In this document: positions 22,429 to 25,278 of the stretch, piece after piece | Numbering within the stretch: position 1 is the stretch's first letter | How the letters are laid out: each line of letters begins with the position of its first letter | Assembly: GCA_963663225.1 (NCBI GenBank) | Contig: OY760142.1 | Coordinates: forward strand, 640,001 to 704,000 | DNA length: 64,000 bases | Reading direction: 5' to 3' | Source of the DNA: Nitrospirota bacterium | Lineage (GTDB): Bacteria; Nitrospirota; UBA9217 | Program-made: the position numbers and the translations under genes | The notes under the pieces: generated by a model | Databases searched by the model: none | Told to the model about the DNA's origin: nothing | The model's input: only the letters and a program-made list of their open reading frames with translations

Positions 22429-22809
22429 TTAATGCGCGCACCCTCCGCCATGACTGTGTCCGCCACAGCACTGGGAAAGCGTCAACTCGGCAAGCGTCCC
22501 GTTCCGGAACATCTCGATATTCTGCCGCACCGTGCCGCCCTGGGAGCGGTATACTTTCAGCCCCATTCTATTCAAGCCGTTCAGCGCGCCTGCGCCGATG
22601 CCGCCCACGACAATCGCATCCACCTGCCGGTTGTCGAGCGCTTTCATCGGGCTGCACATGCCGTGCGCATGGTGCTGGTCGCGGTTGTTTATTACGTCGA
22701 CCGTGTTTGCATCGATGTCGACAACCAGAAACATCGGCGCTGAACCAAAGTGGTTGTACACCGTGCTGTCCATCCCTTCTTCATTTTGTACCGGAAAACA
22801 AATCTTCAT
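22429..22809 (-). CDS. NifB/NifX (IssA-like) family protein
   Basis: MKICFPV, HFGSAPMF and VGGIGAGA motifs, with a Gly/His/Cys-rich tail CCGGHSHGGGCAH. Confidence 0.85.
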   Translation of the reverse strand: MKICFPVQNEEGMDSTVYNHFGSAPMFLVVDIDANTVDVINNRDQHHAHGMCSPMKALDNRQVDAIVVGGIGAGALNGLNRMGLKVYRSQGGTVRQNIEMFRNGTLAELTLSQCCGGHSHGGGCAH

Positions 22810-22838: not shown

Positions 22839-23114
22839 TTACTCAAACACAATCGCCCCGCCCTGCGTCAGGGCCATGGCAACTTTTTTTCTCGCCGCGG
22901 CAAGGATTCTTTGAACGGTCCCGCGTGATACACCCATACGAACGCCTGCTTCCTCCTGGGTCAGCCCATCAAGATCACAAAGCTTCAAGGACTCGAGTTC
23001 ATCCCGGGAAAGGGTAATCCGCATAACCTCACTCATCGGGATACCGGTAGGCTTGAACGCTTTACCGCGGAATTGACATCCGCAGAATCTCGGTTTTTTA
23101 CATCGAGGAGACAC
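22839..23114 (-). CDS. DUF134 family predicted DNA-binding protein
   Basis: PR.KK.R...FKPTGIP, DELESLKLCDLDGLTQEEAGVRMGVSRGTVQRIL..ARKKVA. GTG start at 23114. Confidence 0.88.
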   Translation of the reverse strand: MSPRCKKPRFCGCQFRGKAFKPTGIPMSEVMRITLSRDELESLKLCDLDGLTQEEAGVRMGVSRGTVQRILAAARKKVAMALTQGGAIVFE

Positions 23115-23133
23115 TACACCACCCCCAGCATTC

Positions 23134-23147
23134 TGTGCATATGCACA
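23134..23147. promoter_or_regulatory. perfect 14-bp palindrome TGTGCATATGCACA, candidate DUF134 operator
   Basis: Lies immediately downstream of a minus-strand TTGACA-17-TATCAT promoter and upstream of the DUF134 RBS. Confidence 0.6.
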
Positions 23148-23230
23148 AAATGATACTCGAAACATCTCATGTTGTCAATATCTTTTTGTCGAAACACGAC
23201 GCCTAGCATTACAGTCCTGATAAGCGAATA

Positions 23231-23471: not shown

Positions 23472-23933
23472 TTATCTCCGCCTCCAACCGCTCCAGACAG
23501 GATAACCGTTTTCATCTCGAAGTTTTAACACTTCCTCTCCTTTCTTTATCTCTGCCGCAATAAGAGCGGGACTGCCATTGAAAACAATCCTTGAACCTTT
23601 GGCTTCAATTTTGTCGTTTACGTTTATTTTGACATCCTGATTTTCAAGATACCATGTCGGCCCGAGATGAACGGATATATTTCCTTTGGCGGTTTTCAAA
23701 AGAACATGCATACCATGCGACATTCCCCGCATCGGAGCGATTAGGTCCACTGTTACTACTTCTCCGCTGACAACTTCAACGGTCTTGGGATCATACATCC
23801 GCCCGTATTGGGAGCCCATGCCCCATCCGCCGCTTCCTTTCCACATCATGCCGGGTTGAGCAAAAGATTCCATCGCCAACAAAGGGCACAAGAGAAGCGC
23901 AAACAAAAGTAGTATGATTCTAACTTTTCTCAT
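23472..23933 (-). CDS. exported OB-fold-like protein with Gly/Met-rich linker
   Basis: Signal peptide MRKVRIILLLFALLLCPLLAMESFAQ and a YDPKTV..VSGEV...VHLGP.WYL...GSR...LRDENG.P.W pattern, with an AAGGAG RBS. Confidence 0.7.
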   Translation of the reverse strand: MRKVRIILLLFALLLCPLLAMESFAQPGMMWKGSGGWGMGSQYGRMYDPKTVEVVSGEVVTVDLIAPMRGMSHGMHVLLKTAKGNISVHLGPTWYLENQDVKINVNDKIEAKGSRIVFNGSPALIAAEIKKGEEVLKLRDENGYPVWSGWRRR

Positions 23934-23967: not shown

Positions 23968-24495
23968 TCAGAGGCCTTTTTTCTCAAACCATCGGAAAAG
24001 CAGCAATGTTCCGACTGTGAAAACGACGATCACCACCCAGTGATTGACGCCAAGCATCTGCGGGACGGTAATCTTCCCGAAGACTCCCCATGTCAGCACG
24101 GTTTCTTTTAACGCAGGATACGCCTCTGCAAAGATGGCAGCACCGGTCAACATGCCCAGAATGCCCCAGACCGCATCCCATCTTCCTTCCCCAAGAGCCC
24201 CCATCTGGGTGCCGGGACAATATCCGAGCACGCCCCACCCAAGCCCGAAGATAAGTCCTCCCAGCACCTGAGCTCCGATGATGGTCGGCTTGATCTGCAA
24301 TTTCACAATCCCAAAGTCCTTCAGAAGATAAACGCCGATCATGGCGACAAGAATGCTCGAAAGCATGAATTTGACAATGGTCATATCCATCAGCCGCAGC
24401 GCGCCGACCTGCTTGTCATATCTGATCACTCTGCCTTTCTGGAGCAGAAATCCGAACATAATGCCGGTCACCAGTCCCAAGAGAAGTATGTTCAT
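23968..24495 (-). CDS. YeeE/YedE sulfur-transport family protein (second subunit, Cys form)
   Basis: GIMFGFLLQK and GGLIFGLGWGVLGYCPGT motifs. The start overlaps the upstream stop (ATGA). Confidence 0.9.
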   Translation of the reverse strand: MNILLLGLVTGIMFGFLLQKGRVIRYDKQVGALRLMDMTIVKFMLSSILVAMIGVYLLKDFGIVKLQIKPTIIGAQVLGGLIFGLGWGVLGYCPGTQMGALGEGRWDAVWGILGMLTGAAIFAEAYPALKETVLTWGVFGKITVPQMLGVNHWVVIVVFTVGTLLLFRWFEKKGL

Positions 24496-25016
24496 CGCCG
24501 GTCACCCCCTCCGTACAGAATGCGCGCCATAACAATTCCGCCTACAAAAAAACAAACCAAGGCAATAAATCCGCTCACCGCAAGCTGAAGCGAACCGCTC
24601 AGCCCATGGCCGCTCGGTCAGCCATCAGCCAGACGGGCGCCGAACATCGCCACGGCGCCTCCGAGAAACGCCGCAGCCGCCCGCTTTGGCACACTCGGGC
24701 CGAAACGTTCCATCCACATGTCAGGCACGGCTTTCCATTGGAAACTCCGTGATGCAAAAGCCGCAATCAAGGCACCAATAAATATTCCGACTACAAACAT
24801 CCATTGCCAGTCTATTTTCGGCACCTCTTTGATAAAATACGCCATGGACGCCACGCGTTCTGACGCCACGGTCTGCTCGATCATTCCGGCTGTTTTCACA
24901 AACGTTGTTGATGCTCCGAGAAACTTGTCCGCCGTAAGAACGGCAAACAGCGACACGAGCCCGCTCAATGCGCCTGCCACATACGGGTTCCATCCTGCAT
25001 CTTGTTCAGATTTCAT
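24492..25016 (-). CDS. YeeE/YedE family protein with in-frame UGA (probable selenocysteine) at 24618-24620
   Basis: WNPYVAG, LGASTTF and DWQWMFVVGIFIGA, then GARLADG-UGA-PSGHGLSGSLQLAVSGFIALVCFFVGGIVMARILYGGGDRR*. The frame stays open and family-like past the UGA and ends overlapping the next ATG. Confidence 0.88.
24584..24603 (-). promoter_or_regulatory. candidate bacterial SECIS hairpin
   Basis: mRNA GCUG-AGCG-(GUU)-CGCU-U-CAGC. The apical loop begins with G 22 nt after the UGA, and the stem has a bulged U. Confidence 0.7.
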
Positions 25017-25278
25017 TCCGGCCTCCTTTCAAGAAGTAATTTGTATATGCGATTTTATGCAACTATGTAATAAGGGTAGCAAGGAGACTGCGGTCTGTCA
25101 AGAAAACGGGAAAAAATTTGCCGTATTTTATAAATGATGATTCATCGAACTTAAGGAATATATCGCTTTGAGAATACCAGTTGGGGAAATGGCTGGCTCT
25201 GCGGAGAATCTGCGGACTTCACAGTTGTGTGGCAACCGATCCTGCGATCCGAAGATATGGTGAATTTTTTGGTGTCGG

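Follow-up and report, generated by a model that had tools for sequence, protein, structure and literature searches.

We analysed a stretch of 64,000 nucleotides (the window; positions 640001-704000 of contig OY760142.1 from a Nitrospirota bacterium), and the genome searched is the single 3.255-Mb contig to which it belongs. On the minus strand of the window lie two adjacent genes for half-size subunits of a YeeE/YedE transporter. The first (24492..25016) is PmpA-like, of the C-terminal-half type, and is interrupted by an in-frame UGA. The second, its partner (23968..24495), is PmpB-like, of the N-terminal-half type, and encodes 175 aa with Cys93 in the motif LGYCPGT. We conclude that the two genes very probably encode a split PmpA/PmpB-like YeeE/YedE transporter with a genuine selenoprotein subunit, in which a selenocysteine insertion sequence (SECIS) directs the incorporation of selenocysteine (Sec) at the equivalent of Cys293 of YeeE.

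The Sec gene starts with an ATG at 25016-25014, and a Shine-Dalgarno-like AGGAGG (25022..25027, minus strand) can be read directly 5 nt upstream of it. A simple promoter and terminator scan of the 262-nt spacer to uvrB, the gene upstream of the Sec gene, revealed no sigma-70-like promoter on the minus strand. The open reading frame (ORF) of the minus strand (24618..25016) encodes 132 aa and ends in FGARLADG, followed by TGA at 24620-24618. When this TGA is translated as U, the frame gains 41 residues, PSGHGLSGSLQLAVSGFIALVCFFVGGIVMARILYGGGDRR, up to a second TGA at 24494-24492, which gives 174 codons in total. The UGA (24618..24620, minus strand) then encodes residue 133, within the motif G-U-P-S-G-H, and stands in the invariant Cys133 column of the alignment. 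The final stop overlaps the ATG of the partner (24495-24493) by 4 nt, as ATGA. The first-pass annotation, made from the letters and an ORF list, had described just this: an ORF track that stops at GARLADG, a frame that runs on through the TGA, and an end that overlaps the partner start. Translation confirmed all three. It had also predicted that automated annotation would miss or truncate the gene, and the gene call for the locus in the protein collection is indeed the 132-aa form (P0012).

We next consider what stands at this codon in orthologues. A six-frame search of 41 related genomes gave a match in 30 of them and eight close orthologues (60-99% identity); orthologues with 60-97% identity span the whole length of the Sec gene. 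Exactly one in-frame TGA is present in seven of the eight, and the eighth, from the same genus (80% identity), has TGC. When 20 loci were aligned, the residue was U in seven and C in 13, with the TGA in line with the Cys of every Cys homologue. Past the UGA the peptide hardly varies (xSGHGLSGS(L/V)QLA). For a wider sample one genome per species was scanned, and among the best 80 of 580 relatives, which were retained, the motif column holds TGA in 55, TGC in 17 and TGT in eight. Three of these 80 loci duplicate loci already in hand; the non-duplicate set comprises 85 orthologous loci, 60 with TGA (Sec) and 25 with TGC or TGT (Cys). Since one of the two search patterns in the species-level scan demanded a Cys codon, the search did not inflate the share of Sec. 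The Sec loci were drawn from records labelled Nitrospirota, Thermodesulfobacteriota, Bacillota, Negativicutes and others. Those of the Thermodesulfobacteriota belong to Syntrophaceae, Desulfobacteraceae and Syntrophorhabdaceae, including the cultured Syntrophorhabdus aromaticivorans UI. The window gene thus has an in-frame UGA at a Cys position with conserved coding sequence downstream, and the expectation that homologues would carry either Cys or UGA in this column was borne out.

On a quick maximum-likelihood tree at least nine changes between Sec and Cys are required, three of them forced by well-supported branches, so Sec and Cys have been exchanged repeatedly. The window gene falls in a clade of three Sec sequences, and the Cys sequence from the same genus is the sister of this clade (support of 97 in the Shimodaira-Hasegawa-like approximate likelihood ratio test, SH-aLRT). 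The genomic evidence indicates that decoding of the UGA at 24618-24620 would in all likelihood yield a selenoprotein of 174 residues and not a truncation of 132, and the annotation should be changed to the longer product. Since the Sec form is the majority among the closest relatives (60/85), many such gene calls are probably truncated.

A SECIS-type hairpin is present 3' of the UGA (24584..24603, minus strand). It has an 8-bp stem (G24603-G24596 paired with C24592-C24584) with one bulged U and an apical loop GUU (G24595-U24594-U24593), located 22 nt after the UGA, as the first-pass annotation had described. The published model of bacterial SECIS elements (bSECIS) asks for a loop of 3-9 nt, a stem of 4-16 bp, G in the first two loop positions, a distance of 16-37 nt from the UGA and a minimum free energy of at most -7.5 kcal/mol (PMC13188914). 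The window hairpin agrees with all four constraints of the model. Its local fold energy is -11.5 kcal/mol, as against -3.38 +/- 1.87 kcal/mol in 2000 synonymous recodings, none of which was as low.

The hairpin was also found to be conserved in the homologues, which the first-pass annotation had proposed as a check. The eight stem pairs were examined in the 60 Sec sequences (56 of them distinct), where 94.0% of the cells are paired; sliding the 3' partners by 1-3 columns drops the pairing to 24.1-48.9% of the cells. Where two upper pairs are left unpaired, the sequence is a variant whose register is shifted and whose loop is GUUC. Covariation is seen at one pair (GC 30, AU 22, GU 1, other 3), with both changes synonymous (third position of a Gly codon and first position of a Leu codon). 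In these phylogenetically related loci nt 15-39 after the codon fold with an energy of -10.67 +/- 1.46 kcal/mol for Sec (n=60) and -5.47 +/- 3.04 kcal/mol for Cys (n=25). The difference persists in the loci that encode the identical peptide PSGHGLSGSLQLAV, with -10.38 kcal/mol for Sec (n=36) and -5.44 kcal/mol for Cys (n=9). The apical GGUUC occurs in 54/62 Sec rows and 10/26 Cys rows, and the Cys orthologue from the same genus encodes the same peptide with codons that disrupt the stem.

The genome contains the complete machinery for Sec incorporation. We searched for selA, selB, selC and selD, and all four were above the curated cut-offs: selA with 597.1 bits (cut-off 268), selB with 375.9 bits (cut-off 242), selD with 372.2 bits (cut-off 125) and tRNA-Sec with 62.8 bits (gathering score 47). 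ARAGORN also reports a tRNA-SeC with the anticodon tca. The selD gene itself has one in-frame TGA. It lies outside the window in a selenium-metabolism cluster (L109; G000:C1:517500-524500) that also holds YedE, a YedF-like gene and a double-rhodanese gene. The match to the YedF-like protein is an N-terminal fragment with 52.3 bits, under the cut-off of 110, and the double-rhodanese protein gives sub-threshold matches to rhodanese selenoprotein models. A second match to RF01852 (48.9 bits, 144 nt) adjoins selD at 522308-522451, where ARAGORN finds no tRNA.

Both halves of the transporter belong to the Pfam family PF04143 (Sulf_transp; cut-off 27). The Sec half matches profile positions 174-309 of 310 with 85.5 bits and the partner positions 18-149 with 50.1 bits; the partner also matches DUF6691 with 30.1 bits. 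When compared with the PDB by phmmer, the two halves align to the TsuA/YeeE structure 6LEO from Spirochaeta thermophila with E-values of 9e-06 and 2e-06. Residues 67-168 of the Sec half align to 6LEO 237-328, which places U133 on Cys293, and residues 6-120 of the partner align to 6LEO 4-116, which places Cys93 on Cys91. The claim that Sec stands at the relay Cys of the motif G-A-R-L-A-x-G-C-x-S-G-H therefore holds, since the TGA falls on the invariant Cys column and corresponds to Cys293 of 6LEO. The third relay position of YeeE, Cys22, is Ile in the window partner and Ile or Leu (Q-K/R-x-x-V-I/L-R) in 60 of the 62 scored partners; the remaining two gave no motif. Hence, of the three relay cysteines of TsuA/YeeE, Cys293 is replaced by Sec, Cys91 is kept and Cys22 is absent. 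The arrangement is that of a split YeeE of the PmpA/PmpB type, with adjacent halves whose conserved positions fall on the Cys293 and Cys91 equivalents.

The partner is the only constant neighbour. It adjoins the Sec or Cys gene in all 97 loci, and its central Cys is kept in 82 of the 83 loci covered, in agreement with the earlier statement that the partner retains Cys (GYCPG). The sole exception, L072 from an uncultured Syntrophaceae, has a TGA in the partner too (LGY-U-PGT), besides the one in the first gene; this may reflect either a heterodimer with two Sec residues or an error.

The other neighbours seen in the window are rarely found beside the pair elsewhere: among the 97 loci, uvrB adjoins it in three, LysR in one, a metallo-beta-lactamase (MBL)-fold protein in five and the secreted 153-aa protein in five. 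The last is encoded in the window at 23472-23933 (minus strand), 34 nt downstream of the partner, and has a signal-peptide-like N-terminus. It belongs to no Pfam family and gives a weak match to MamS (19.7 bits, cut-off 200). In a Pelobacter record its homologue lies immediately upstream of the pair. Further downstream in the window are a gene for a putative DUF134 regulator (22839-23165, minus strand) and a NifX/NifB-like (Nitro_FeMo-Co) gene (22429-22809, minus strand). DUF134 and NifX-like genes occur near the YeeE pair in about 7-11 loci, mostly of Nitrospirota and often with a ferredoxin-like gene.

The commonest neighbour besides the partner is a pyridine-nucleotide-disulfide oxidoreductase, which is beside the pair in 15/85 loci and absent from this position in the window. 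It is located upstream in L039 and L047 and downstream in L050, L075, L082, L090, L092, L095, L099, L101, L103 and others. Two Geobacter-type Cys loci encode it at full length (800-801 aa); one of these proteins, that of L047, was scanned and carries fused rhodanese, TusA and DsrE domains. This fusion suggests that cytoplasmic reduction of persulfide or polysulfide is coupled to the transporter. Next in frequency are cNMP-binding (cyclic nucleoside monophosphate; 7), NifX-like (7), DUF134 (7-11) and ferredoxin-like (6) genes.

What could a selenol do in such a transporter? In the TsuA structure, Cys293 is reported to lie in a positively charged periplasmic indentation and to contact thiosulfate at position I; complementation is lost in the C91A and C293A mutants but not in C22A (Tanaka 2020; PMC7449682, consulted in part). 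The consulted portion of Li 2024 (PMC11582611) likens PmpA to the C-terminal half and PmpB to the N-terminal half of YeeE; each has a single conserved Cys, which falls on Cys293 in PmpA and on Cys91 in PmpB, and the two are proposed to form a heterodimer. We propose that SelB and tRNA-Sec would decode the UGA at 24618-24620 under the direction of the hairpin at 24584-24603, which lies within the coding sequence. Together the two halves would make up a PmpAB-like heterodimer that corresponds to a single YeeE chain and would import thiosulfate or sulfane (zero-valent) sulfur. Sec would be positioned at the periplasmic entry and the Cys91 equivalent of the partner at the centre of the pathway. 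The selenol, being more nucleophilic and of lower pKa, could capture the outer sulfur of the substrate and hand it over to the thiol of the partner.

The assignment of a sulfur cargo derives from homology to TsuA and from the sulfur-trafficking neighbours in a minority of the loci. It also fits the response of YeeE genes to thiosulfate (PMC9431562) and the uptake of zero-valent sulfur by PmpAB-like proteins (PMC11582611), as stated in the excerpts of these papers that we consulted. The transport chemistry of YeeE is unsettled, and mapping Sec onto Cys293 of a solved structure gives a concrete hypothesis that can be tested, namely whether a selenol at the entry site improves the capture of thiosulfate or sulfane sulfur.

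Several observations qualify or weigh against this interpretation, some concerning the selenoprotein and others its cargo. Dinucleotide shuffling of a wider stretch around the hairpin (66 nt) gave an unremarkable result (z = -1.11), and support for the hairpin therefore comes from the synonymous-recoding control and the comparison with other genomes. Since the loci are phylogenetically related, the nominal P values of the Sec-Cys comparison overstate its significance, although the direction is still clear. There was no Rfam match in 24300-24800 at E <= 10, which is uninformative, the coverage of bacterial SECIS elements by Rfam being unchecked. Moreover, the TsuA equivalog cut-offs were missed by the Sec half (53.2 bits vs 400 for NF052577 and 39.1 vs 645 for NF041049) and by the partner (53.2 vs 400 and 31.7 vs 645, respectively), and so was the YedE/FdhT cut-off (28.7 bits vs 350 for NF033796). 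The assignment of a substrate by homology is therefore weak. Finally, E. coli YeeE requires YeeD according to the abstract of PMC11073785, whereas no TusA/YeeD-type gene adjoins the window pair and the genome's five TusA-family matches lie elsewhere.

The same selenoprotein could instead transport selenium, as selenite, selenide or selenosulfide, which has been proposed for YedE. Proteins of the YedE family are tied to selenium metabolism (PMC5322559, consulted in part), the organism uses Sec, and the window proteins give weak matches to YedE models (28.7 and 35.3 bits). However, the window pair is far under the YedE cut-offs (for TIGR04112, 35.3 bits at best vs 200), and the genome has its true YedE elsewhere, in the L109 cluster, where it adjoins selD and the YedF-like gene (TIGR04112, 494.9 bits vs 200). 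Furthermore, Cys forms are common in the orthologue group, and the neighbours that were found carry sulfur-trafficking domains. We therefore regard selenium as an unlikely cargo.

Another possibility is that the UGA doubles as a selenium-dependent switch, so that at low selenium only the 132-residue fragment would be made and the translationally coupled partner would be down-regulated; recoding would in that case have a regulatory role besides its catalytic one. The overlap between the far stop and the partner start is ATGA in 57 of 62 scored loci, with Sec and Cys forms pooled and 23 of the 85 loci unscored, and translation of the partner could consequently need ribosomes that pass the UGA. 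The Cys forms share this overlap, however, so the coupling is not specific to Sec, and a switch appears less probable still than a selenium cargo.

It is highly improbable that the TGA is a true stop, be it in a recent nonsense pseudogene or in a naturally truncated protein. Standard gene calling does yield the 132-aa ORF, but a TGA in the same column recurs in 60/85 loci from several phyla, beyond it the frame runs on intact and conserved, the hairpin shows both conservation and covariation, and the genome has the full Sec machinery.

An assembly or sequencing error of a TGC or TGT codon is hardly credible, since no alternative letter was seen at 24618-24620 in four sequencing runs, including raw reads of a related population with wobble differences, and the same TGA is present in independent assemblies. 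The raw reads, which the first-pass annotation had named as a check for TGC or TGT, accordingly agree with the assembly at this codon. The nearby wobble sites 24609, 24615, 24627 and 24633 vary among the related populations represented by the sequencing runs. Run X2, possibly the sample of origin itself, does not count as an independent run. Among the runs listed as containing the stretch there was no RNA run, since the one labelled RNA-Seq is probably DNA, and one long contig that is identical over 24579-25100 may also stem from the sample of origin. Public metagenome contigs break or branch at 24570-24620, the region of the UGA and the hairpin, where the depth rises. Both features fit a near-identical conserved segment common to several community members.

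The split selenoprotein is accompanied in the phylum by other YeeE homologues with in-frame TGAs. The same genome has a second YeeE-like gene (P0122; L108:1940-2923, plus strand, G000:C1 at about 1737939-1738922), which is full-length with 327 codons. Its one in-frame TGA is codon 32, at the Cys22 equivalent (QRGRF-U-MLS), and is followed by a 6-bp hairpin; Cys is kept at the Cys91 equivalent, and Asp stands at the Cys293 equivalent. L111, from the same genus and 96% identical, is its only close orthologue and shares the TGA. Since the codon right after the TGA is ATG, a shorter product is possible. Among 151 genomes of the phylum, seven have full-length homologues that carry two TGAs, at the Cys22 and Cys293 equivalents, in the motifs QRGRY-U and GG-U-TVGH. 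A hairpin follows each TGA, the second with GGU in its loop. These genes are L135:983-2071(-), L136:987-2006(-), L137:142-1233(+), L138:962-2050(+), L139:1019-2110(-), L140:1007-2104(+) and L141:960-2051(-). One of these genomes (G036) also has a second copy with Cys at both positions (L126). In one genome a homologue has a single TGA at the Cys293 equivalent, in GG-U-NIGH (L121:1477-2559, minus strand).

Neither a form with Sec at the Cys22 position nor a double-Sec form appears in the published catalogues searched, which were seen in part and list GUxSG only; both may be uncatalogued variants. Taken together, these genes raise the tentative idea that the YeeE family of the phylum uses Sec as a positional, directional relay, at the entry (Cys293; the window gene and L121), at the cytoplasmic exit (Cys22; P0122) or at both (L135-L141), with Cys91 staying Cys save for one of 83 loci. 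We consider this doubtful, though less so than a selenium cargo for the window pair. If true, it would imply a covalent Se-S/S-S exchange, that is, group translocation, and not the hydrogen-bond hand-over proposed for TsuA.

Every element of the first-pass annotation that could be checked was borne out, but its implication that a transporter selenoprotein of this kind would be new did not stand. A selenoprotein of the YeeE/YedE thiosulfate transporter family is already catalogued in two reviews (PF04143, exemplar WP_012471001.1; PMC9312934, 2022, and PMC13188914, 2026). In its consulted sections the latter gives the motif GUxSG and names this protein among several predicted transporter selenoproteins. 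The names YedE, YeeE and COG2391 are absent from the main texts of the cited primary sources (PMC2398784 and PMC5029168), and the original catalogue entry presumably sits in their supplements. A full-text literature search, judged largely by titles and abstracts, found no biochemical or structural treatment of a Sec-form YeeE. The window gene thus adds a member to a selenoprotein family that is known, though so far purely by prediction, and it opens no new category. As far as the literature was searched, the additions made here are the mapping of Sec to Cys293, the split PmpAB-like architecture, the description of the SECIS and the Sec majority among the closest relatives.

The catalogued YeeE/YedE selenoprotein, which we compared by motif and family only, shares with the window gene the Pfam family, the Sec motif (GUPSG here) and the origin of the prediction in comparative genomics. 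Unlike the present description, the reviews, in the sections consulted, give no residue mapping, partner subunit or SECIS. YedE (TIGR04112) and the YedE/FdhT putative selenium transporters belong to the same superfamily, and YedE is reported to be split into two genes in archaea (PMC5322559, in the part consulted). In contrast to YedE, which adjoins selD outside the window in this genome, the window pair is not beside selD.

TsuA/YeeE of S. thermophila and E. coli (6LEO, 6LEP, 8J4C; PMC7449682) is homologous by sequence and shares the LD- and LB-loop motifs around Cys293 and Cys91. Its single chain (330-350 aa) has three relay cysteines, and it works together with YeeD/TsuB, whereas the window pair is split, lacks Cys22, has Sec at Cys293 and has no adjacent TusA-like gene. 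PmpA/PmpB of Serratia sp. ATCC 39006, compared by their description in the consulted part of PMC11582611, are likewise encoded by adjacent half-size genes that correspond to the Cys293 and Cys91 halves. Those subunits are of ~130 aa with four predicted helices and both carry Cys, whereas the window subunits are larger (174 and 175 aa), with the predicted Sec in the PmpA-type half.

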